From: an uncultured Planctomycetia bacterium
GTDB taxonomy: Bacteria > Omnitrophota > Gorgyraeia > Tantalellales > Tantalellaceae
Length of the DNA stretch: 64,000 nt
Assembly (NCBI GenBank): GCA_964409365.1
Contig: CAYPCX010000012.1
Location: forward strand, 178 to 64,177
Direction of reading: 5' to 3'
Shown here piece by piece: positions 2,524-62,521 of this stretch. A model generated the notes under the pieces. It did no database searches. It worked only from the letters and a program-made list of their open reading frames with translations, and was not told the origin of the DNA. The translations under genes and the position numbers were made by a program. Every line of letters starts with the position of its first letter. The stretch's first letter is position 1.

Positions 2524-2561
2524 CTGTCTTCCGTCTTCCGTCTTCTGTCTTCCGTCTTCTG
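2524..2561. repeat. heptanucleotide tandem repeat (CYGTCTT x ~5) in trxB-grx spacer
   Basis: ctgtctt ccgtctt ccgtctt ctgtctt ccgtctt read directly. Confidence 0.85.
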
Positions 2562-3297: not shown

Positions 3298-3873
3298 TCA
3301 ATAGTTCTCCGCCATCACTTCATAATAGGCCCGGGGATGGGCGCATGCCGGGCATACTTCCGGGGCCTCCCGCCCCTCGTGCACATACCCGCAATTGCGG
3401 CATCTCCATTTGACGACAGCGTCCTTTTTGAACACTTTTCCTTCCTTGACGTTGGCCAGTAATTTCCGGTATCTTTTTTCGTGCTCTTCCTCTACTTCGG
3501 CTATTTCCCTGAAGACGTCAGCTATCTCGCCGAAACCCTCTTTCCTCGCCGTGCCTTCACAATCCTTGTAAATAGAGGACCATTCGAGTTTTTCGCCGTC
3601 GGCAGCATGCTCCAGGTTCTGGGCCGTGTCGCCTATGACCCCCGCCGGATACGTCGCGGTGATCTCGGCCTCCCCGCCCTCAAGGAATTTGAAGAACTTT
3701 TTCGCGTGTTCTTTTTCATTCTCAGCTGTCTCCAGAAATATGCCCGCTATCTGTTCATAACCGGATTTTTTCGCCACGCTGGCAAAATACGTATAGCGGT
3801 TCCTTGCCTGTGATTCACCCGCAAAAGAGGCAAGCAGGTTCTTTTCCGTCTGTGTGCCTTTGATACTTTTCAT
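3298..3873 (-). CDS. rbr: rubrerythrin (diiron ferritin-like domain plus C-terminal rubredoxin-like domain)
   Basis: 191 aa; ExxH pairs and C-terminal CRNCGY...CPAC. Confidence 0.9.
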   Translation of the reverse strand: MKSIKGTQTEKNLLASFAGESQARNRYTYFASVAKKSGYEQIAGIFLETAENEKEHAKKFFKFLEGGEAEITATYPAGVIGDTAQNLEHAADGEKLEWSSIYKDCEGTARKEGFGEIADVFREIAEVEEEHEKRYRKLLANVKEGKVFKKDAVVKWRCRNCGYVHEGREAPEVCPACAHPRAYYEVMAENY

Positions 3874-3889
3874 TTCCCTCCCTTTCCTT

Positions 3890-3966
3890 GATACTTGATA
3901 CTCGATACTTGATACTCTATACTCGATACTCTATACTCGATACTCGATACTTGATATTCTATACTC
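3890..3966. repeat. heptanucleotide tandem repeat GATACTY x11 between dfx and rbr (overlaps dfx stop)
   Basis: gatactt gatactc gatactt gatactc tatactc gatactc tatactc gatactc gatactt gatattc tatactc. Confidence 0.9.
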
Positions 3967-4351: not shown

Positions 4352-4486
4352 TTAGACCGGCACGAACTGGTCTTTACCCACCCCGCACTCGGGGCAAACC
4401 CAGTCTTCCGCAAGATCCGCGAATTCCACACCGTCATTCTCGGCCGGATCATAGATATAACCGCAAACTTCACATTTGTACTTCAT
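4352..4486 (-). CDS. rubredoxin (not in ORF track, <60 aa)
   Basis: Hand translation: [44 protein letters not shown] (44 aa), canonical CxxCG...CPxCG. Confidence 0.8.
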
Positions 4487-4765
4487 GGCCCCTTCCTTTC
4501 TGTGACAGACAATATTTTAGGGCGGTAAGTCTTAATTATATTCCACTTCAAGCGGTGTTTCTATATTAAAGTTGGATTTTATGGGCAGTTTAACGTCATG
4601 CCCGGGACCAGGTACAGCAGCCTTCTTTACAATGCGCCACGGGGCGCAGCATATATCTGACAGTCACTTTCATCTTTCTCCTCCTTGTTTTTAATGAACA
4701 TCGATATGGCTTCAGTTATAATGATACCATTTTAGTATCATTTGTCAAGGAAAAATCATCTTTTT

Positions 4766-4797
4766 TAACCCCCGGGGGTTAACCCCCGGGGGTTAAA
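4766..4797. repeat. palindromic direct repeat ttaacccccgggggttaa x2 downstream of tlpA-like gene (hairpin, possible terminator)
   Basis: Self-complementary CCCCCGGGGG units duplicated; U-tract not ideally placed for minus strand. Confidence 0.5.
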
Positions 4798-29064: not shown

Positions 29065-30081
29065 TTAGCAGATACGGGGAAGCTGGTCAGATTCGAGCAT
29101 AGGAAGGATACGGGTCGATCCGATGCGGGTTCGGAGGCGGACTTCGCCTTTGTGGCGGGTGGTGGTACGGCCTATCAGACGGGCGCCGGGCCCCATGGCC
29201 TTTTTAACCCTGGATGCGTCTTCTTCGCTGACAAAGCAGACAAATTTCCCTTCATTCGCAACATACAGCGGATCAAAGCCCAGGACGTCGCAGAGTTTCC
29301 CGACGGCGGGCTTCACGGGGATATCCTTTTCAGATATTTCAATACCGATGTTCGATGACCGGGCTATCTCATTAAGCGTAGTGGCGAGTCCCCCTCTTGT
29401 GGGATCGCGCATAACGCTGATCTTTTCCGACGCCTTAAGACATTTTTGTGCTTCAAAATTCACATTTGCGCAGTCGCTTTTTATGGGGGGTTTAAACCCG
29501 AGGTCCTCTCTCGCGTTCAATATTGCCATACCATGCTCGGCTATACCGCCGTTTATAAGCACAAGGTCGCCGCTTTTCGGTTTGACGCCAACGCCCTTTC
29601 CTTTCTCTATCACACCTATGCCTGAAGTGTTGATGAACATCCCGTCACAGGCGCCTTGTTCGACGACCTTGATGTCACCTGTCACGACCTTAACATTTGC
29701 TTCCCGAGCGGCCTGCTTTATCGAGGAAGCGACCCTTCCAAGCACGGAGAACTCAAGCCCTTCTTCCAGGATGAACGCAAGCGACAAATAAAGAGGACGC
29801 GCGCCTTTCATGGATATATCGTTCACGGTCCCGCAAACGGCAAGTTTGCCTATGTCGCCGCCGGGAAAGAAAAGCGGTTTCACCACGTAGGAATCGGTAC
29901 TGAAAGCGAGGCGCTCCGCGTCCACCCTCAGTTCTGCGGCATCCGCCATCTCGTCGAGGATCCTGTTAGAGAACTTCAGACGCATATCCTCGACCAGCTC
30001 ATGCATGAGCTTCCCGCCGTTCCCATGCGCAAGAGTTATTGTCTTCCCTGAGACCTGAGACCTGAGACCTGAGACCTTCAT
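29065..30081 (-). CDS. hypE: hydrogenase maturation protein HypE
   Basis: 338 aa; PurM-like fold motifs, C-terminal conserved ...PRIC; coding N-terminus carries GGTCTCA heptamer repeats. Confidence 0.9.
   Translation of the reverse strand: MKVSGLRSQVSGKTITLAHGNGGKLMHELVEDMRLKFSNRILDEMADAAELRVDAERLAFSTDSYVVKPLFFPGGDIGKLAVCGTVNDISMKGARPLYLSLAFILEEGLEFSVLGRVASSIKQAAREANVKVVTGDIKVVEQGACDGMFINTSGIGVIEKGKGVGVKPKSGDLVLINGGIAEHGMAILNAREDLGFKPPIKSDCANVNFEAQKCLKASEKISVMRDPTRGGLATTLNEIARSSNIGIEISEKDIPVKPAVGKLCDVLGFDPLYVANEGKFVCFVSEEDASRVKKAMGPGARLIGRTTTRHKGEVRLRTRIGSTRILPMLESDQLPRIC
30050..30077. repeat. heptanucleotide tandem repeat GAGACCT x4 inside the first codons of hypE
   Basis: gagacct x4 directly after the ATG; encodes VSGLRSQVSG. 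Confidence 0.85.
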
Positions 30082-31116
30082 TTAACTCCCGTACCTAAAA
30101 TACGCCGCGCACGTGCCTTCGGACGATACCATGCACGGCCCCACCGGATGGCGCGGAGTGCATTTCTTTCCGAAAAGCTTACATTCACGGGGCGTCTTTA
30201 TCCCTTGAAGGACTTTCCCGCACACACATCCTTTCGGCAGAACACTTTTCTTTACTTTGACATTGAACTCTTTCTCCGCGTCAAGATCCTCGTACTTCTT
30301 TTTGATCTTTAGCCCGCTTCTTTCGATCTTTCCTATACCGCGCCAGACGGAATCAGCCTGTTCAAAAACCTTTTTGATAAGTTTTTTGGCTTTTGCGTTC
30401 CCGCTCCTTTTTACGGCTCTTTTGTATTCTACCTCGACACAGGCATAGCCTCTTTTTATCTGTCTTACCAGCCGTGTAACGCCTTTTATGATATCATTGT
30501 CCTCAAAACCCGTTATAACACAAGGTATTACATACTTTTTTACCACGGGCTCATAAGGAGCGCTCCCGGTTATCACGCTCACGTGTCCCGGACAGATAAA
30601 ACCGTTGACCTTGAGTTCCTTTGAGCCGGCTATCGCTTCAAGCGCCGGAAAGATGACCTTGAAACCGGAAAGCACAAAAAAGTTCTTCACTCCACGTTTT
30701 TTGGCTTCGATTATCGTCGCCGCCACCGTAGGAGAAGTGGTCTCAAAACCCACTCCCATGAAGACAACCCTTTTCGAAGGGTTCTTCTCGGCTATTTCCA
30801 AAGCATCCGCCGAGGAATACACCACACGCACATCCGCGCCTTCGGTTTTCATCCGGTCCAAACTTCCCGAACTTCCGGGCACGCGCATCATATCACCGAA
30901 GGTCGTCATGATGACGTTCTCCTCCCCGGCTATCTTCAGGGCCTTGTCTATATCTTCCTGGGAGGTCACGCACACGGGACAACCCGGGCCGGATATAAGC
31001 TCGACTTCTTTGGGTAGGAGCTTTTTTATGCCCGACCTGGCGATAGCCATCGTATGCGTCCCGCAGACCTCCATCAGCTTGATCGTCTTCATAATAGAAA
31101 TATATTCTGGGGACAT
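30082..31116 (-). CDS. hypD: hydrogenase maturation protein HypD
   Basis: 344 aa; CGTHT...GPGCPVC motifs. Confidence 0.9.
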   Translation of the reverse strand: MSPEYISIMKTIKLMEVCGTHTMAIARSGIKKLLPKEVELISGPGCPVCVTSQEDIDKALKIAGEENVIMTTFGDMMRVPGSSGSLDRMKTEGADVRVVYSSADALEIAEKNPSKRVVFMGVGFETTSPTVAATIIEAKKRGVKNFFVLSGFKVIFPALEAIAGSKELKVNGFICPGHVSVITGSAPYEPVVKKYVIPCVITGFEDNDIIKGVTRLVRQIKRGYACVEVEYKRAVKRSGNAKAKKLIKKVFEQADSVWRGIGKIERSGLKIKKKYEDLDAEKEFNVKVKKSVLPKGCVCGKVLQGIKTPRECKLFGKKCTPRHPVGPCMVSSEGTCAAYFRYGS

Positions 31117-31137
31117 TTTTGCGCGCCTACATACCGC

Positions 31138-31398
31138 CTACACAAAAGTGTCCCCAGAACCTCCGTTTACACTCTCGGCGTTTATCACCGCTCTTAATTC
31201 GCCCAGGACCTTCTCCGTGTCTTCCGCCTCTTCCTTTGTGACTTTCCCGATCGCAAAACCGGCGTGCACGAGGACATGGTCGCCCTTCTTTACGCCGGCC
31301 AGGACGCCGAGCGATATCTCCCTTTTCACGCCGCCGAAATCAACGACGGCTTTTTCTCCCAAAATTTTAGTAATCCTCGCTGGAACTGCCAAACACAT
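31138..31398 (-). CDS. hypC: hydrogenase maturation chaperone HypC
   Basis: 86 aa beginning MCLAVP (Cys2). Confidence 0.85.
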   Translation of the reverse strand: MCLAVPARITKILGEKAVVDFGGVKREISLGVLAGVKKGDHVLVHAGFAIGKVTKEEAEDTEKVLGELRAVINAESVNGGSGDTFV

Positions 31399-31482
31399 AG
31401 TATTACCTCATAGTATTATAAACACCCGCCATAAAGAGGTATCTTAATTGCCTTGAGCGGGGCGTCAATGACCGAGCGAGCA

Positions 31483-31572
31483 TGGTGTCCGCGCGAAGCG
31501 CGGACGAGCGAGGGAATTGTCGAGACCGATTCCCTCGCTGGGGAAATCGGTCGTCCCTGCGAGAGGCAGTTA
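31483..31572. repeat. ~90 bp palindromic repeat element, copy 1 (hairpin gtccgcgcgaagcgcggac + gagcgagggaat..attccctcgctgggg + atcggtcgtccctgcgag)
   Basis: ~85% identical to 32684..32771; internal inverted repeats. Confidence 0.8.
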
Positions 31573-32637
31573 AGATACCCAGTGACAAGCCACGAAATAC
31601 TGCCCCATCGCGATATTCAGGTCGTTCACCGGATTTGACCTGTTAATGAAAGTTTGATATCCCGCTCCTATCAAATCCCTGAGCGCTCTTTCCTTCAGGT
31701 ACCCGTTCTGGAACACGCCTCCGCTGAGCGCGATATCCCTTACGCCCGTCTTCTTTGACAATTTCTTCACGACCTCCACGATAATATTCCCCATGGAATT
31801 ATGGAACCTGGCCGCTATGATCTTCTTACTTTTTCCCCTACCCATATCCCGTACCATACCGCGAAAAAGGCCGTCTGTCCCGATCACGCACATACCGTTC
31901 TCCCTGGATATGTCAAAGGGATATGAACCCTCTTCTTTCTTATCGCACATCGCCTCGAGCTTTATCGGACCTTCTGATTCACGTGAAGCATGCGTACAGA
32001 TCCCTAAAAGAGCCGCGGCGGCGTCAAAGAGGCGTCCCGCGCTCGATGTGAGCGGCGAGTTGATCTCTTTTGACATCATTTCTAACACAAGACCTTTTTG
32101 TTTTCTACTGACGCCCTTGACCATCTTCGCCCCGCCGGGACCCAGCACGCTGAGCACCATTCTCCAGGGCTCGGATACTGCTTTATCTCCGCCGGGCATC
32201 ATGCGGTATTTCAGGTGAGCGAGCCGCTTAAAACCCTTTTTGTCCACAAGAAGGAACTCCCCTCCCCATATGTTGCCGTCAGTGCCATAACCGGTACCAT
32301 CGAAGGAAACACCTATAACGGGACCTTTAAGGGAGTATTCCTCCATCACGCTTGCAATATGAGCGTGGTGATGCTGCACGGGAAGTATCGAGTATCGGGT
32401 ATCGAGTATCGAGAGTTCCTTGGCAAACCGTGTGGAAAAATAAGCGGGGTGCAGGTCACATGCTATAACACCGGGGCTTACCTTTCCGGCCGCCTTGCGG
32501 ACTTGGCGCCTAAAGCGCTCATAGTTCTCCGCATCGCCCAGGTCCCCCATCTCGGGGCCGGCTTTAAAGCTCTTCCCCTCCGCGAGAAGAAACCTGTTCT
32601 TTATATCCGCTCCTAATGCGAGTATTGTCTTACTCAT
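31570..32637 (-). CDS. hypF: HypF C-terminal (Kae1/YgjD-like carbamoyltransferase) domain protein; acylphosphatase, Zn-finger and YrdC domains absent
   Basis: 355 aa from ATG 32637; ACDLHPAYFST...VQHHHAHIASV metal-binding motif; ORF-track N-terminal extension is translation of the repeat element. Confidence 0.7.
   Translation of the reverse strand: MSKTILALGADIKNRFLLAEGKSFKAGPEMGDLGDAENYERFRRQVRKAAGKVSPGVIACDLHPAYFSTRFAKELSILDTRYSILPVQHHHAHIASVMEEYSLKGPVIGVSFDGTGYGTDGNIWGGEFLLVDKKGFKRLAHLKYRMMPGGDKAVSEPWRMVLSVLGPGGAKMVKGVSRKQKGLVLEMMSKEINSPLTSSAGRLFDAAAALLGICTHASRESEGPIKLEAMCDKKEEGSYPFDISRENGMCVIGTDGLFRGMVRDMGRGKSKKIIAARFHNSMGNIIVEVVKKLSKKTGVRDIALSGGVFQNGYLKERALRDLIGAGYQTFINRSNPVNDLNIAMGQYFVACHWVS
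32385..32412. repeat. heptanucleotide tandem repeat (GATACTC, minus orientation) x4 embedded in hypF coding sequence
   Basis: gtatcga gtatcgg gtatcga gtatcga; encodes SILDTRYSIL just upstream of the HHHAH motif. Confidence 0.85.
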
Positions 32638-32683
32638 GACTGGTCTACTGGAAATGTTCGAACTGTTCCGAGCGGGCACGGTC

Positions 32684-32771
32684 CCCGAGGGCCAAAGGCC
32701 CGAGGGGGAGCGAGGGAATGACAGAGGCCGATTCCCTCGCTGGGGGGATCGGCCGTCCCTGCGAGGACAGC
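32684..32771. repeat. ~90 bp palindromic repeat element, copy 2 (between truncated hypA and hypF fragment)
   Basis: gagcgagggaatgacagaggccgattccctcgctggggggatcggccgtccctgcgag; preceded by gggccaaaggccc hairpin. Confidence 0.8.
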
Positions 32772-32789
32772 TCAAACATTTGTTGTACA

Positions 32790-33032
32790 TCATTCTATAT
32801 CAAATGACAATACCTGGATTATCGTTCCCGGGAACATGGTTATCTCGAGGTCCGCCCCTTCAAGAAGAGTTCCCTTAGCCAGGACGGAAAAGGTTTCTTT
32901 GAAAGAATCCTCTTTCACACCTGTTAATTCCCCGACCTTGAGTTTCACGTTGGTGACCTTCTTGCCGCCTTCTTTCTCCGTATGCTCGGCTATACCCTTT
33001 ATGATAGGCTCTATAAGATGTGTCTCATGCAT
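32790..33032 (-). CDS. hypA: HypA-like N-terminal fragment (MHE Ni-site retained, Zn-finger CxxC...CxxC missing); probably truncated
   Basis: 80 aa MHETHLIEPI...LEGADLEI aligns to the HypA N-terminal half; no cysteines, stop 18 bp before repeat copy 2; no Zn finger in any downstream frame. Confidence 0.5.
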   Translation of the reverse strand: MHETHLIEPIIKGIAEHTEKEGGKKVTNVKLKVGELTGVKEDSFKETFSVLAKGTLLEGADLEITMFPGTIIQVLSFDIE

Positions 33033-33054
33033 TTTTTGCCTCCTTAAAAATTAA

Positions 33055-33162
33055 ATGGTACGACAAACAGTAACCAGAAACCAGTTTCCAGTCCAGTTAC
33101 TGGTTACCGGTTACTGGTCACTTGTTACTCTATCCTTTTTCCTTTATCCTTGTTACTGTTCA
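33055..33162. repeat. heptamer-periodic repeat block (AACCAGW / GTTACYG / TATCCTT units) between protease gene and hypA, overlapping protease stop
   Basis: gttactg gttaccg gttactg gtcactt gttactc tatcctt tttcctt tatcctt gttactg ttcactg gttactt; includes palindromes aaaccagttt and ccagttactgg. Confidence 0.8.
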
Positions 33163-33617
33163 CTGGTTACTTTTTTAATCGCCGCCACGATCTCTCCAAG
33201 CGCCTTTTTCACGCTATCCGACATCTCTTCCCCGAATGCCACGTTACCCGGCTGCACCGCGAGCATGTAGATATCGGCTTTTGTTTCTTGCTCAAGGTAT
33301 TCAATGGCCATGACCGGTGAAAGGTCATGCGTGGTAAAACCCGACCTCACTATTTCGTCCTTATGCAGTATATCGTATGTCCCCGGGGCGGCATCCATAT
33401 GGACCGCATCGGCTATTATCACGGTATCCGGCTTCTCCCTGGCTATCTTGCCCAGGTAATTTTCCGGGGCGCTGCCGGCATCGATGCATATAAGGTGTCC
33501 TTCACCGGCAAGTATTTCCGCCAGCCGGGGGCCGAAGGCATCATCCCCCTTAAGGATGTTGCCTACACCCAGAAGAACGGTCTTCCCTTTAATAATCTTA
33601 TTAAAGATATTATCCAT
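33153..33617 (-). CDS. hydrogenase maturation endopeptidase (HycI/HybD family)
   Basis: 154 aa; GVGNILKGDDAFG metal-binding motif and conserved downstream H. Confidence 0.85.
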   Translation of the reverse strand: MDNIFNKIIKGKTVLLGVGNILKGDDAFGPRLAEILAGEGHLICIDAGSAPENYLGKIAREKPDTVIIADAVHMDAAPGTYDILHKDEIVRSGFTTHDLSPVMAIEYLEQETKADIYMLAVQPGNVAFGEEMSDSVKKALGEIVAAIKKVTSEQ

Positions 33618-41158: not shown

Positions 41159-41163
41159 GTCAG

Positions 41164-41191
41164 TTCTTAGTTCTTAGTTATTAGTTCAGAG
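41164..41191. repeat. heptanucleotide tandem repeat TTCTTAG x4 between nuoC-like and large-subunit genes
   Basis: ttcttag ttcttag ttattag ttcagag. Confidence 0.85.
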
Positions 41192-42123: not shown

Positions 42124-43047
42124 CTATTTTCCAAAATAAGCCAAGACTACCGCCCCGACAGCCAGGACCGTCATCGGTCCCCAGAAGAATTTTACGGCCT
42201 GGTCTATCCTGAGACGCGGGTTAGTATTGCGTATTACCGTTATCAACGCCACAAGCAGCACATATTTAAGGATGCCGTACAAGAGATGTATACCGTCAAA
42301 CCGCAAGCCTCCCATGTAAAGTATCATCAGGAAAAAAGGCAGCGTGAAAAGGAGCATGTTCTTGGTCAGTCGGAACATGGCGAGGGCCGTTCCCGAATAT
42401 TCTATCAGCGCGCCGCCCGAGATCTCGGTCTCCGCCTCCGGTATATCGAACGGCACCAACGCGAGTTTCGCCTGGACGCTCATGAGCGCCACGACCAGGG
42501 CTATGAACCCCGACAGGCTCCCTACCACTACTCCATTCTGCGCCTGCGCGCCGAGTATCTCGCCTATCCTTATGGAATACCCCGACTTGATCACTGGCAC
42601 CATCACCGCGAACACGAAAGGCAGTTCGTACGCTAATATCAGTTTCATCTCGCGCGAGGCGCCGATACTCGCCAGGGGGTTGGCCGAAGCGAAACCGCCC
42701 ATTATTATGCTCATAGAAGGTATCGTCAAAAGATAGATGGCCACTATTATATCGCCCACAAACCCCTGGCCTAACCTGATATCGTTGATCCAGAGCAGGG
42801 TCGAGACCAGGACCACACTGCTAAAGCCCACTACCGGCGCCATTAAAAAGGTCGTCCTGGAAGCCCCCGCGGGCACAAGCGTTTCCTTTCCGAGAAGTTT
42901 TATTATATCGATCAACGGCTGAAGGAGCGGAGGTCCCACCCTGTACTGCACGCGGGCCGTGACCTTCCGGTCTATCCAGCTCGCCAGAAGTCCTATGACC
43001 GCGGTCAGGAAAAACCCGAAAAATATAAGGTAAAAAATATATATCAT
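42124..43047 (-). CDS. NuoH-like membrane subunit (MbhM/EchB/HycD-like)
   Basis: ~307 aa from ATG 43047 (MIYIFYL); 8 TM; ORF-track extension MGYGPWTVDEK is translation of heptamer repeats. Confidence 0.8.
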   Translation of the reverse strand: MIYIFYLIFFGFFLTAVIGLLASWIDRKVTARVQYRVGPPLLQPLIDIIKLLGKETLVPAGASRTTFLMAPVVGFSSVVLVSTLLWINDIRLGQGFVGDIIVAIYLLTIPSMSIIMGGFASANPLASIGASREMKLILAYELPFVFAVMVPVIKSGYSIRIGEILGAQAQNGVVVGSLSGFIALVVALMSVQAKLALVPFDIPEAETEISGGALIEYSGTALAMFRLTKNMLLFTLPFFLMILYMGGLRFDGIHLLYGILKYVLLVALITVIRNTNPRLRIDQAVKFFWGPMTVLAVGAVVLAYFGK

Positions 43048-43053
43048 CTTCTC

Positions 43054-43109
43054 GTCCACGGTCCACGGTCCATAGCCCACGGTTGACAGTGGACTATGGT
43101 CTGTGGACT
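43054..43109. repeat. heptamer-periodic tandem repeat (GTCCACG-like x8) upstream of nuoH-like start
   Basis: gtccacg gtccacg gtccata gcccacg gttgaca gtggact atggtct gtggact. Confidence 0.8.
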
Positions 43110-43135
43110 GAACTCCGTACCCGTTAATTTCATTC

Positions 43136-46313: not shown

Positions 46314-48158
46314 TTATTTATTGCGTTCCCGTTTTCCGAGAAGGACGATGTCCCTCAGGGCCTCTTTATCCTTGGCCTGCATCCACCTTTTTTCGAAAAG
46401 CGGATCCTGGACGATCTGGGCTATGGCCGAAAGGGCCCGGAGGTGGAAATTCCTCTCGTCCCTCGTGCCTGCTATAACGAAAACGGTATGGACCTTTCGC
46501 TCTTTCCCGGGGAATATGATGCCTTCTTTGCTGCGCGCCAAAAGTATGGTGAAAATATTATTCCCGTCGACCACTATATGCGGAATGGCCAAGCCGGGGC
46601 TTAAGACCGTACTGCTCTGCTCCTCCCTGTCCAGAAGAAGCGTCAACATGACCGCGGATTCCACACCCGTTCTCTCGGAAAGCTTCTCCGCCGCCAGCTT
46701 AAAAAAATCACCGGCTGTCATGAAACCAGTTATATCAAGAACGATGCCCTCCTCTACGATGCGATCGAACCTGTCCTTTATTATGTCATCCCTCTCCCGG
46801 ATGATCTCCTTGAGCTCCGCTTCGAGAGAAACGTCGGCGAATTCCCGTGCCGCGACGCGTTCAATGAGATGCAAAAGCGCGAAATCCCTCTTTGCCCTCT
46901 CCCTGCCATAGAACCAGAAAACCGCCAGACCCGCGGCAAAAAGCAGGGATCCCGCAAAAAGAGCCTGTTTGCCCATATTCACTACCAGCAGCCAGCAGCC
47001 AAAAATACCGATGACCTGCACCCAGGGATAGAAAGGTGACCTGAACTGCGGCCTGTAATTAAGGACGCCGCTCTGCCTCATGATGATCACGCAAAGACAG
47101 GAGAACATAAAGGTCATTATCAGGACCGTCGACGCCACTTCAACAAGGACATAAAGGTCAAGGAAAAGCGCCAGGATCATTATGCCGCCGGTGAACAGTA
47201 TCGCTACGGCGGGCGTCTTGAACTTTTTATGTACATTGCCGAAAAGATCCGGCAGCAGGCGGTCACGGCTCAAAGCAAAGGGATATCTCGAGGCGGCCAT
47301 GATGCCGGCGTTAGCCGTTGAAATAAAAGCTAAAATAGCCGCGATACTCATAGCTATCACGCCCCAGTTCCCCATGAAAACGGCCGCGCCGTCGGAAATG
47401 GGAGTAAGGGAACTATCCAGTTGTCTTGCCCCCAGAACACCCGTAGTGACAAAAACCGTCAATGTGTATAAGATCGTAACAGCGACAAGTGACAGTATCA
47501 TGCCCAGCGGCACTGTCTTGGACGGGTCCTTCACTTCCTCGGCTATACTGGCCACTTTTATAAGACCGCCGTAAGATATGAACACAAATCCGGCGGTAAA
47601 GAATACAGCCGGCGCCCCGCGGGGCGCGAAAGGCTCAAAGTGCACCGCGCTCATAGCGGGCAGGCCGCGTGCTATATAGACCACAAGGAGGGCGACGAGC
47701 GTTACGACTATAGCTACCTGGACCTTGCCCGCCTCCTTGATGCCGATATAATTGAGAGCGACAAAAATAATGCAAAAAGCGAGAGCTATAAGCCGCGGGT
47801 CAACATTGACGAGGATCCTTGTGAACGCGGCCATACCCACCAGCGCGAAAGAGCTCTTAAGGGATATGGACATCCACGTGAGAAGCCCGTCTATCGTGCC
47901 GACAGCGGGTCCCATGCTCCTGGTCACGTAGAAATAAGTGCCTCCTGCCCTGGGCATGGCGGAAACGAGCTCCGCCTGGCTAAGCATGCCGGTCATGGCC
48001 AGAAAACCAGCCAGAAGATACGAGATCACCACGGCCGGTCCCGCCTGCGCGTGGGCAAGTCCCGGGAGGATAAAAAGCCCCGAACTGATCATCGCTCCCG
48101 AAGCGATGCAGAAAACGTCCAGAAGCCCCAGTTCTTTTTTTAACTTTGCGTCTTCCAT
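46314..48158 (-). CDS. APC-family amino acid permease fused to C-terminal PTS EIIA(Ntr/fructose-type) regulatory domain
   Basis: 614 aa; ~430-aa 12-TM APC core; C-terminal ~150 aa with LSPGLAIPH active-site His motif of PtsN-type EIIA. Confidence 0.65.
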   Translation of the reverse strand: MEDAKLKKELGLLDVFCIASGAMISSGLFILPGLAHAQAGPAVVISYLLAGFLAMTGMLSQAELVSAMPRAGGTYFYVTRSMGPAVGTIDGLLTWMSISLKSSFALVGMAAFTRILVNVDPRLIALAFCIIFVALNYIGIKEAGKVQVAIVVTLVALLVVYIARGLPAMSAVHFEPFAPRGAPAVFFTAGFVFISYGGLIKVASIAEEVKDPSKTVPLGMILSLVAVTILYTLTVFVTTGVLGARQLDSSLTPISDGAAVFMGNWGVIAMSIAAILAFISTANAGIMAASRYPFALSRDRLLPDLFGNVHKKFKTPAVAILFTGGIMILALFLDLYVLVEVASTVLIMTFMFSCLCVIIMRQSGVLNYRPQFRSPFYPWVQVIGIFGCWLLVVNMGKQALFAGSLLFAAGLAVFWFYGRERAKRDFALLHLIERVAAREFADVSLEAELKEIIRERDDIIKDRFDRIVEEGIVLDITGFMTAGDFFKLAAEKLSERTGVESAVMLTLLLDREEQSSTVLSPGLAIPHIVVDGNNIFTILLARSKEGIIFPGKERKVHTVFVIAGTRDERNFHLRALSAIAQIVQDPLFEKRWMQAKDKEALRDIVLLGKRERNK

Positions 48159-52549: not shown

Positions 52550-52644
52550 GATTTATAACTTATAATACAAAACCCCACACGTGTCAAGAATATTTCCCCC
52601 TGTACAACCCCGGGGGTTGAACCCTTGCCAAACCCCACCGTATT

Positions 52645-52677
52645 TATACATCGGGTGTATTATACACCCGATGTATA
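52645..52677. repeat. 30-bp perfect palindrome tatacatcgggtgtattatacacccgatgtata (copy 1)
   Basis: Identical core at 56239..56270. Confidence 0.85.
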
Positions 52678-53748: not shown

Positions 53749-53762
53749 ATGACAGGTATTAC

Positions 53763-53935
53763 AGTTACTGGTTACTCCAAAAGTAACCCGTTTCAGATAA
53801 GTCTGGTTACTGTTTACTGGCTACTGGTTACGACACTTGATACTTGCTATTTTTCCTTGTTACTTTTTCCTTTTTCCTTGATACTTCTTCCTTTTTCCTT
53901 GATACTTGTCACTTGTTGCTACTTACTGGTTACTC
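53763..53935. repeat. heptamer-periodic repeat block (GTTACTG, CCTTGAT/ACTTCTT/CCTTTTT units) between DUF763 gene and sufBD
   Basis: gttactg gttactc ... gttactg tttactg gctactg gttacga; 21-mer ttcctttttccttgatacttc x2. Confidence 0.8.
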
Positions 53936-53944
53936 CCCCCTCAG

Positions 53945-55048
53945 CTATAATCCGCCCTGGAGGGTCTGATCCTCTAACTGCTTGATCTCGTCTTTAAGGA
54001 GTTCCGGAAGGGCGAGGATATCCACGTCCATGAACCCCCTGATGATCACCGACTGGGCCTGGTCAGGCGTCATCCCGCGGGAACACAGGTACTCTATCTC
54101 TTCCTTGCTGATCCTGCCGATAGCCGCTTCATGCGAAAGGTCCACGTCACGCAGGTCTGTTTCAAGTTCGGGGATGGCGTGGATCGTGCCTTCCTCCGAA
54201 AGGACAAGGCCCCTGCACTCAAGATGAGCCCTTACGCCGGGGTTCTCAGCTTTAAGATGCCCGCGCGCCACGACCTTACCGCCCAGGCTTACGGCCCTTG
54301 AGACTATTTCCGCATAAGTTTCGGATGACTTGAAGATGACCCGCGCGCCTATATCCTGTAAAGTGTCCGGATGGGAAAGAATGAGCGAATTGAAGCTAGC
54401 CCTGGCCCCGTGGCCCATGAGAACGGCCGTCGGGTACATCGTGATATCCCTGACGGGCTTAAGGCAGACATAGTTCGATATGAAACTCCCCCCTTCTTCC
54501 ACTACAGCGACACTCATGGGCCTTACTGATACGTCCTCCCGCCATGAATGGATCATCGTAAAGTTCAGGTAGGCCCCCTTTTGCACAAAGAACTCGGAGA
54601 TGCCGAGATGGAAGGATCCCCGGGCGGCCTCTGAGGCGGAACACCCGGTAATAAGATAGACCCTGGCGCCCTCTTCTATGATGATCATGTTGTGGACCTT
54701 CTGCTCGAACGCCTGCTTCTTGAGAAAAAGACAGGCCTGGATGGGCAGGCTTACTTCGGCACCTTTCATGACCCTGATAAAATAACCGCCGGCCGTATCG
54801 GCGGGGTATTCCTTGTTCAGCATCTTGAAGGATTTTCCGTAATAATTCCTTACCCCGGGATACCTTTCAAGGGCTTCTTCCATCTTTACGATGTCCACCC
54901 CCTCGAACAGGCTCTTGGAAAAGAGTATGTCATCGTCCTGCTGCAGAAAAGAAGCCGAACGTGTCTTCTCGGAAAGGTCCATCCCCGAAGAAGTCACCTT
55001 GTCGCCGTCCTCTTTATTTAACACGTTCCTGAGATCAGGGTCTGCCAT
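53945..55048 (-). CDS. Fe-S cluster assembly scaffold SufB/SufD-family protein
   Basis: 367 aa; C-terminal beta-helix region; adjacent sufC. Confidence 0.75.
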   Translation of the reverse strand: MADPDLRNVLNKEDGDKVTSSGMDLSEKTRSASFLQQDDDILFSKSLFEGVDIVKMEEALERYPGVRNYYGKSFKMLNKEYPADTAGGYFIRVMKGAEVSLPIQACLFLKKQAFEQKVHNMIIIEEGARVYLITGCSASEAARGSFHLGISEFFVQKGAYLNFTMIHSWREDVSVRPMSVAVVEEGGSFISNYVCLKPVRDITMYPTAVLMGHGARASFNSLILSHPDTLQDIGARVIFKSSETYAEIVSRAVSLGGKVVARGHLKAENPGVRAHLECRGLVLSEEGTIHAIPELETDLRDVDLSHEAAIGRISKEEIEYLCSRGMTPDQAQSVIIRGFMDVDILALPELLKDEIKQLEDQTLQGGL

Positions 55049-55751: not shown

Positions 55752-55791
55752 CCCGTCACCTCGTCCGACATCCAATATCCAACATCTAACA

Positions 55792-56223
55792 TCAGTTTCT
55801 TTTATACAAACCCACAAGCTCCGCCTGGTCGAGTATGTGTCCTTCCATGGCCTTTTCCAGTTCTCCTTTGCTGATGCCATCGTCCAGTTCGAGCTCGCGG
55901 TCCAGGGCATACGCCTTGAAAAAATACCTGTGGGTCCCGGACGGGGGGCACGGCCCTCCGTAACTCAGCCTGCCGAAATCGTTCATGCCCTGCTTACCCG
56001 GAACGGTACCCTCACCGATACGCTCCGTGACCGGCATATCGTAGACCACCCAGTGGACCCATGTCCCCATGGGAGCGTCCGGGTCGTCGACGATGACGGC
56101 CATGCTTTTGGTCTGGTCGGGTATCTCCTCGATATTGAGCTCGGGGTTCACGTCCTGTCCCTGGCACGTGAACTTTGAAGGAATGTAGCTGTTGTTGCTG
56201 AATTCCGGACTCTTTATTTTCAT
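55792..56223 (-). CDS. YbhB/YbcL-family PEBP (Raf kinase inhibitor-like) protein
   Basis: 143 aa; DPDAP...H...GPxPP....HRY PEBP signature. Confidence 0.75.
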   Translation of the reverse strand: MKIKSPEFSNNSYIPSKFTCQGQDVNPELNIEEIPDQTKSMAVIVDDPDAPMGTWVHWVVYDMPVTERIGEGTVPGKQGMNDFGRLSYGGPCPPSGTHRYFFKAYALDRELELDDGISKGELEKAMEGHILDQAELVGLYKRN

Positions 56224-62415: not shown

Positions 62416-62521
62416 TTATCGGTTTTTGGTGTGGGATAACTAGAAATTCGACATTCGTAAGTCGACCGCATTCCCGATCCTCTGAACACTTCTAATTTCG
62501 ACTTTCGAATCTCGAATGCTC

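Follow-up and report, generated by a model that had tools for sequence, protein, structure and literature searches.

Heptanucleotide repeats inside hypE and hypF of an uncultured Omnitrophota bacterium probably belong to a class of slippage arrays filtered by selection

What is a perfect heptanucleotide repeat doing directly behind the start codon of a hydrogenase maturation gene? The question is raised by a stretch of 64,000 nt (hereafter the window) from contig CAYPCX010000012.1 of assembly GCA_964409365.1, in which the maturation genes hypE and hypF both carry tandem 7-nt units. The source population, known only from metagenomes, belongs to Candidatus Omnitrophota: among Genome Taxonomy Database (GTDB) species representatives the nearest HypE is 76% identical, and the best ~30 matches are all Omnitrophota metagenome-assembled genomes. 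Omnitrophota are uncultured bacteria with small genomes, and the [NiFe] maturation proteins HypE and HypF are cytoplasmic, housekeeping-type maturases. A sequence-only reading of the window had proposed that heptamers intruding into hypE, hypF, and a nuoH-like gene form a phase-variable switch. We consider it probable, at roughly 0.6, that slippage and subsequent filtering by selection account for the hypE and hypF repeats as members of a class that pervades this contig much as short tandemly repeated repetitive (STRR) sequences do in cyanobacteria and TAACTGA repeats in Beggiatoaceae, and that the hypE array leaves behind a latent frameshift site.

How is the hypE array built, and where does it lie in the protein? 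On the minus strand, the gene opens with ATG AAG and four exact heptamer units (GTCTCAG), just as the sequence-only reading had described, and the perfect 31-nt period-7 run begins 1 nt past the ATG. A GGGAG Shine-Dalgarno (SD) motif lies 4 nt upstream of the ATG (30086..30090, minus strand), and the hypD stop codon (TAA, 30082-30084) abuts it as TAAATG, with no spacer. The hypD-hypE spacer of Chloroflexota and Bacteroidales holds heptamer arrays that often touch the hypE ATG; because that spacer does not exist here, the array stands just inside the open reading frame (ORF) rather than just upstream of it. About 30 Omnitrophota HypE orthologues begin with M and two to five residues, followed by I/V-T-L-A-H-G, and have no array segment. 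The hypE gene of locus L087 starts ATG AAG AAG ACA ATA ACA, and the window has this form plus 30 nt, (GTCTCAG)4 GG, placed between ATG AAG and the conserved KTITLAHGNGG. Matches to the HypE query in tblastn begin at residues 13-15, and solved HypE structures align from query residue 10 or beyond (DvMF HypE from residue 10). Judged from these alignments, the array is a lineage-specific insertion of 10 residues (30 nt) in a nonconserved N-terminal tail, one of the two outcomes that an orthologue comparison had been expected to separate. Repeat-derived HypE tails occur in two other Omnitrophota (L008, period 8; L021, an A-rich period 7), and all three genes with such tails, the window's included, are in frame.

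What would a change in unit number do to hypE? In a simulation of copy numbers, full-length HypE was obtained only at 1, 4, or 7 units, and 0 units left the gene OFF, which upholds the claim that gain or loss of a single unit would frameshift hypE right behind its start. There is no ATG, GTG, or TTG between the array and the conserved ITLAHGNGG, so translation must cross the array. Public gene calls (NCBI, JGI, ENA, and Logan; three of four by one count) nevertheless start HypE from the internal M26 (ATG 30006, 313 aa) and lose ITLAHGNGG. An exact look-up of the 338-aa HypE accordingly returned no match because of where these callers start, not because the sequence varies. A hairpin was considered as an explanation for the hypE array and rejected, the initiation region being no more structured than shuffles (z = +0.87).

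The hypF array reads CTCGATA CTCGATA CCCGATA CTCGATA CTT on the minus strand (4.3 units, 91% matches by Tandem Repeats Finder [TRF]) and encodes LSILDTRYSIL, three residues before HHHAH. The four GATACTC units reported at this site are therefore real, with one mismatch. They had also been placed in one unit family with an 11-copy array upstream of the rubrerythrin gene (rbr); the double-stranded unit is indeed the same, but its orientation relative to transcription is opposite. A stretch with a variable loop separates the conserved Y-x-S from QHHH and spans 14-41 codons in 103 loci. In the window it has 19 codons (57 nt), the length found in 13 other Omnitrophota and five residues more than in the Caldanaerobacter structure 3VTH. 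Since the loop is as long as in those 13 relatives, the array segment is not an insertion relative to them, and for hypF the orthologue comparison went against the sequence-only reading. A hairpin explanation was dropped for this array too, at a z of just -2.1.

Do other HypF proteins carry repeats at the same place? Strong period 7 was found in 12 of the 103 HypF loops, vs. one loop for any other period, and the units are unrelated (AACTGTS, CAGCTTA, GCATCAC, GTTTCAR/AACCTGA, and GACGAAA/TTCGTCC). Several Omnitrophota and Chloroflexota thus have their own heptamer arrays in this loop (loci L008-L010, L016, L031, L039, L054, L057, L059, L060, and L116-L120). In Anaerolineae, the loop arrays are often inverted and form hairpins within the ORF, and each hypF gene has at least three in-frame arrays. 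Heptamer arrays inside HypF C-domains were in frame in 18 of 18 cases, from 10 distinct genomes, and no hypF among 111 loci was frameshifted (OFF) by a heptamer. The sole split gene, in locus L041, was rejected as a heptamer frameshift, its break being an assembly gap inside a 15-nt in-frame repeat. That Anaerolineaceae hypF (3390-3600 of the locus) has a long 15-nt tandem repeat, CTGGAACACGCCGCG (LEHAA), interrupted by a gap of Ns, and offers a further example of a HypF loop that tolerates repeats, here with a period that is not 7.

Are heptamer arrays peculiar to hydrogenase maturation genes, as the sequence-only reading implied? They are not: TRF placed period-7 arrays at 11 loci in the 64 kb (Table 1), mostly in leaders of unrelated genes, with nothing comparable at other periods. 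At a threshold of 18 of 21 period matches, five segments were counted for period 7, three for period 14, and zero for every other period from 4 to 15, and Markov shuffles (n = 20) gave none at any period. Exact runs show the same preference, with seven for period 7 vs. 0-1 for other periods. (Inside a permease gene, a TGGCTGC run of 17 nt at 46985 was judged too short to count as an array.) Eight of the 11 loci are intergenic, and six of nine intergenic arrays stop no more than 13 nt short of the downstream ATG. In mRNA sense, the leaders concerned are those of a thioredoxin-reductase-like gene, rubrerythrin, hypA, the hydrogenase large subunit mbhL—where no SD is recognizable and the array stops 3 nt before the ATG—the NuoH-like subunit, a DUF763 gene, an ABC ATPase, and a PGA_cap gene. 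The window holds at least eight distinct units, of which GATACTC recurs at three loci and GTTACYG at two to three. Composites of GTTACYG and AAGGAWA stand at two homologous loci, 33040-33180 (hypA leader) and 53750-53985 (DUF763 leader), which are 70% identical when aligned and share the unit order AGTAACC..., AAGGAWA..., AGTAACA..., GTRACCAGTARCC..., GGTTACT. Because the two composites align, arrays appear to have spread as blocks as well as grown in place. Direct and inverted arrays pair into strong hairpins in two leaders, those of mbhM (z = -4.5) and hypA (z = -2.9).

The first of these hairpins bears on the third gene of the proposed switch, the nuoH-like gene (mbhM). Eight repeat units had been counted in front of it as part of the same 30050-32412 feature; the repeats exist, but they comprise four direct units (CGTGGGC TATGGAC CGTGGAC CGTGGAC) and three inverted ones, and they lie well outside that interval. 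Together the direct and inverted units fold into a hairpin of -33.5 kcal/mol. Three of four gene calls start the gene at ATG 43047 (307 aa), whereas Logan alone starts it at GTG 43080 (318 aa). The repeats are thus most likely 5'-untranslated region (UTR), a hairpin upstream of the likelier ATG, and only the GTG call translates them, so the supposed coding intrusion does not stand.

Table 1. Positions of the three genes discussed and of heptamer arrays in the window
Feature	Position	Strand	Description
hypE coding sequence	29065..30081	-	338 aa from ATG 30081
hypF coding sequence	31570..32637	-	Only the Kae1-like C-terminal half; 355 aa from ATG 32637
NuoH/MbhM-like membrane subunit coding sequence	42124..43047	-	307 aa from ATG 43047
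hypE array	30047..30077	-	(AGGTCTC)x4.4; perfect 31-nt period-7 run; encodes VSGLRSQVSG
hypF array	32384..32413	-	CTCGATA x4.3; one mismatch; encodes LSILDTRYSIL; variable loop before QHHHAH
Inverted arrays, mbhM/nuoH-like leader	43054..43113	-	3 GTCCAC-type and 4 GTGGAC-type units; 5'-UTR hairpin; ends 6 nt before the mbhM/nuoH-like ATG
rbr leader array	3887..3966	-	11-copy GAGTATC/AAGTATC (sense); ends 13 nt upstream of the rubrerythrin ATG
Composite arrays, hycI-hypA spacer	33057..33171	-	AGTAACC / AAGGAWA arrays and inverted arm; hairpin -36 kcal/mol
mbhL leader array	41162..41187	-	(AGAACTA)x3.7; ends 3 nt upstream of the [NiFe] hydrogenase large-subunit ATG
Thioredoxin-reductase-like leader array	2526..2559	-	(GGAAGAC)x4.9; ends 11 nt upstream of the gene
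Composite arrays, DUF763 leader	53803..53914	-	AGTAACC, AAGGAAA, and AAGTATC units
ABC ATPase leader array	55764..55793	-	(GGATGTT)x4.3; ~12 nt upstream of the likely ATG
PGA_cap-family leader array	62490..62517	-	(ATTCGAA)x4; directly downstream of a terminator-like hairpin

How widespread are heptamer arrays around hyp genes in general? Across 157 hyp loci, period 7 was the sole enriched tandem period, with 118 arrays vs. 0-14 for the other periods from 5 to 11. In 138 distinct loci from several phyla, the 4-kb regions upstream of hypE, 418 kb when summed, held 67 period-7 arrays vs. 30 in 1.24 Mb of flanks, a 6.6-fold higher density in the hypF-hypC-hypD region. Counted per locus, 19 loci were denser in the hyp region and 7 elsewhere (sign test, p = 0.03), and no other period showed an excess in the hyp region of the 138 loci.

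How might such arrays arise, and why would they be found where they are? Under the explanation that we favor, arrays would arise and be homogenized by replication slippage or misaligned-template repair, which would favor 7-nt units in many bacteria, and some would be copied as composite blocks as well. Among the simple sequence repeats of bacteria, heptamers are over-represented, and a polymerase-footprint cause has been proposed (PMC4692102). Selection, as the comparison shows, then removes arrays from constrained sequence and lets them persist in mRNA leaders and intercistronic spacers, typically no more than 13 nt from a start codon. Inside proteins, they are retained solely at sites that accept any peptide, and there solely at lengths that are multiples of three; the tolerated sites here are the HypE N-terminal tail and the variable surface loop of HypF, whose 19-codon length is kept. 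Both coding arrays do lie at tolerant or peripheral sites, namely a tail absent from orthologues and a loop of widely ranging length. The perfect hypE tract would remain as a latent frameshift site, ON in the simulation at the three unit numbers given above and otherwise OFF, and with just ~4 units slippage is probably infrequent.

Several observations weigh against this explanation. A model of neutral tolerance explains neither the 6.6-fold density in the hypF-hypC-hypD region nor the repeated appearance of arrays in the same HypF loop across phyla. The GTCTCAG unit is not obviously derivable by slippage from array-less orthologous sequence, and a stepwise path from one to four hypE units would cross OFF states. 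A coding tract without a mismatch over 31 nt points to turnover that is recent or still going on, and one k=31 assembly breaks exactly at the hypE array k-mer. Finally, array spread was counted within the 64-kb window, such that "pervades" is shown for the contig only.

Could the arrays instead be functional elements that act in cis at translation-initiation regions, in RNA or DNA form? We regard this as unlikely. Direct arrays might keep the initiation region unstructured or bind a single-strand-binding factor such as S1, Csp, or CsrA, and inverted arrays might serve as processing or stability hairpins; the hypE array would then just happen to sit at +4 to +34 of its ORF. The six intergenic arrays that end so close to an ATG, that of mbhL with no recognizable SD among them, fit this proposal, and in several phyla the hypE ATG is directly preceded by arrays. 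No structure was found in the hypE initiation region, and the mbhM and hypA leaders form strong hairpins, and the enrichment in hyp operons points the same way. The literature adds hints of a translational role for TAACTGA, of hairpins in the hupS-hupL STRR, and of an effect of Nostoc repeats: contiguous heptamer repeats affect recF and recO expression there, on deletion and reporter evidence (bioRxiv 10.1101/2022.06.06.494920). Against it, at least eight unrelated units in 64 kb argue against one sequence-specific binding factor, and the hypF array lies mid-gene and runs opposite to the rbr-leader array of the same unit. Moreover, neutral arrays in a compact genome would also survive next to start codons.

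A related proposal narrows the function to one pathway. Heptamer arrays could be tied specifically to [NiFe]-hydrogenase maturation operons in at least four phyla (Omnitrophota, Chloroflexota, and Bacteroidota, plus Cyanobacteria from the literature), a tentative idea that would imply an unrecognized cis-acting role. That role might be a regulator or RNA-structure code, or it might be selected local mutability, with the hypE tract as one instance; we hold these variants, too, to be improbable. The proposal owes its standing to the 6.6-fold density together with the recurrence of arrays at the hypD-hypE junction and in the HypF loop with unrelated units, often in inverted arrangement that would give long hairpins within coding mRNA.

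Does the hypE tract vary in nature, as a contingency switch would require? If slipped-strand mispairing in the hypE tract, and perhaps in that of hypF, reversibly shifted the frame, the population would be mixed for [NiFe] hydrogenase maturation. The geometry fits: the tract follows the start codon directly, its unit is not a multiple of three, it is perfect over 31 nt, full-length product arises only at 1, 4, or 7 units, and no alternative in-frame start precedes the conserved motif. Enrichment of heptamer arrays in hyp operons across phyla can be counted on the same side. The assemblies are less accommodating. Four units are present in the ENA, JGI, and Logan assemblies alike, with the consensus ON in all. 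The JGI contig differs from the window by a single-nucleotide polymorphism in 21,224 nt, has identical arrays, and is the source of a 99%-identical HypF variant (P0004); the ENA contig and two Logan contigs match the window without a difference. HypD was found on 11 contigs, 10 of which run on through the hypE array.

The only hint of variation comes from the Logan k=31 assembly of SRR14699967, in which contig L002 ends at 30048 and L166 starts at 30076, omitting exactly the 31-mer (AGGTCTC)4AGG. In a k=31 de Bruijn graph, an omission of this kind marks a node that branches. A lone 4-unit allele would produce no branch, and a 3-unit allele would move the break elsewhere; an allele with at least five units would give the observed break, as would a second locus with the same array. 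No second AGGTCTC array occurs in the 64-kb window or in 160 other loci, which favors reads with five or more units, but another (AGGTCTC)n locus in the genome or metagenome would cause the break equally well. A scan of JGI metagenomes for the exact hypD-hypE junction gave 0 matches. The other Logan contig end falls in a 33-nt near-perfect palindrome (52644-52676; TATACATCGGGTGTA T TATACACCCGATGTATA), just upstream of the 3' neighbor of the DUF763 gene, and is thereby explained; the hypE array is not palindromic. The break at the array is therefore an ambiguous hint of a longer hypE allele.

Other evidence lowers the odds of a switch further. With only 4.4 units, the hypE tract is short beside neuO of Escherichia coli K1 (3-53 units, commonest 20) and the hmw tracts of Haemophilus influenzae (13-38). 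In hypF the tract is imperfect and the loop length is conserved, and the 18 in-frame arrays contrast with the 65.6% of genomes that are OFF at neuO; 0 of 10 HypF-array genomes were out of frame, where about two thirds would be expected under switching, so natural ON and OFF genotypes did not appear side by side. The usual phase-variable contingency genes are of the surface or restriction-modification class, and cytoplasmic maturase genes fall outside it. Phase variation of hypE is possible, but taken as a whole the switch is improbable—somewhat more so than a role for the arrays in cis—and the share of it assigned to hypF is not supported. That the tandem units are a product of mis-assembly is effectively refuted: repeats are generally hard to assemble and one Logan contig breaks at the array, but the MEGAHIT-type ENA k141 contig and the JGI and Logan assemblies are identical through all arrays over 11-21 kb, and both coding arrays keep the reading frame of conserved proteins.

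What surrounds the arrays? Nearly all genes of the window lie on the minus strand. Between 28.5 and 43.1 kb lie the genes of an Mbh/Mrp-type group 4 [NiFe] hydrogenase and, after them, hycI, hypA, a Kae1-domain-only hypF, hypC, hypD, hypE, and nikR. The HypF domains are HypF_C and HypF_C_2 (Kae1-like) only, aligning with residues 400-745 of 3VTH; the acylphosphatase, Zn-finger, and YrdC-like parts lie outside this ORF, and no search was made for an N-terminal half elsewhere. With only Kae1-like domains in its ORF, the gene is a C-terminal-domain-only HypF homologue, and HypF reduced to this half is also present in other Omnitrophota. HypA (32790-33032) has just 80 aa and covers profile positions 1-70 of 112. 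Protein-guided scans yielded no closer relative, with HypE identities of at most 76% in GTDB genomes and at most 74% in JGI metagenomes, and Rfam gave 0 matches at the gathering threshold in the whole window.

Flanking hypF are two direct copies (31455-31585 and 32655-32785) of a GC-rich structured element of ~110-130 nt, whose core, GAGCGAGGGAAT-N9-CGATTCCCTCGCTGGGG, forms a 12-bp stem. The copies differ in a second hairpin, with its pairing kept, and the fold z ranges from -3.2 to -6 on both strands. The element has no Rfam match, and none of 160 other hyp loci contains its core. In the 407-aa call of HypF, ORF callers translate the upstream copy as 52 additional N-terminal residues, an extension that overlaps hypA. 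Farther away, upstream of the desulfoferrodoxin-rubrerythrin genes, lie (4765-4796 and 4480-4700) a perfect palindromic tandem, (TTAACCCCCGGGGG)x2.3, that is terminator-like and, after it, a promoter-like TTGACA...TATCAT, a small Cys-rich ORF (MKVTVRYMLRPVAHCKEGCCTWSRA), and a rubredoxin-like ORF.

What follows for other genomes? In Omnitrophota and similar genomes, short heptamer arrays lead start-codon calls astray, as with HypE at M26 and the NuoH-like extension, and a single coding heptamer array should not be taken for a phase switch. Variation of the hypE tract, should it occur, would make a rare instance of a core metabolic maturation pathway under contingency-type switching, and this in an uncultured bacterium with a small genome. 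Should the concentration in hyp operons and HypF loops hold genome-wide, there would be a concrete handle on a long-open question, the role of STRR-type repeats.

How do these arrays compare with heptamer repeats already known? In neuO, (AAGACTC)n lies in the 5' coding region in 3-53 units, and 65.6% of genomes are OFF (PMC13001214). We see in it a formal analogue of the hypE tract as a 5'-coding heptanucleotide switch: both place a 7-nt tract at the 5' end of an ORF, both would yield full-length product for one copy-number class modulo 3, and the neuO tract encodes a repeated heptapeptide tail, as the hypE tract does. However, neuO shows length heterogeneity within cultures and OFF genomes and modifies the surface capsule, whereas hypE encodes a cytoplasmic maturase and has four units, ON, in every assembly. 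The heptanucleotide repeats in the H. influenzae hmw1A and hmw2A promoters, 13-38 units whose copy number modulates expression (PMC2651432; PMC8262952), likewise lie upstream of genes, but they sit ~100 bp upstream in adhesin promoters and vary among strains, whereas the arrays of the window are short (3-11 units) and abut start codons.

Resemblance is greater to two other groups of repeats. Cyanobacterial STRR heptamers include hairpins in hupS-hupL and upstream of hoxW; transcript stability or translational coupling has been suggested as their function (PMC2670836; PMC4692102). Like them, the arrays of the window are mainly intergenic, form hairpins where inverted, and lie next to hydrogenase genes. 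They differ in phylum and unit sequence and in standing also in frame inside hypE and hypF; in the literature searched, we found no description of in-frame heptamer arrays in cyanobacterial hyp genes. The closest match is with the TAACTGA heptamers of Beggiatoaceae and cyanobacteria. These direct repeats occur in marine Beggiatoaceae, some cyanobacteria, and Bacteroidetes, a few nucleotides from start codons and with coding intrusions only at protein peripheries, and a translational role has been proposed for them (MacGregor 2015, PMC4679880). Beggiatoaceae have essentially one unit, whereas the window has at least eight, only some of which recur, and the window alone has an array in an internal enzyme loop (HypF) and arrays paired with inverted copies into hairpins. 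In both systems, however, tandem 7-nt units (two to six or more copies for TAACTGA) stand at many loci, mostly a few nucleotides upstream of start codons and often without a canonical SD, before genes that share no functional theme, with rare coding intrusions at termini or peripheries. The arrays of the window thus have the marks of the STRR and TAACTGA type: head-to-tail 7-nt units, a dominant period of 7, and a mostly intergenic position near starts.

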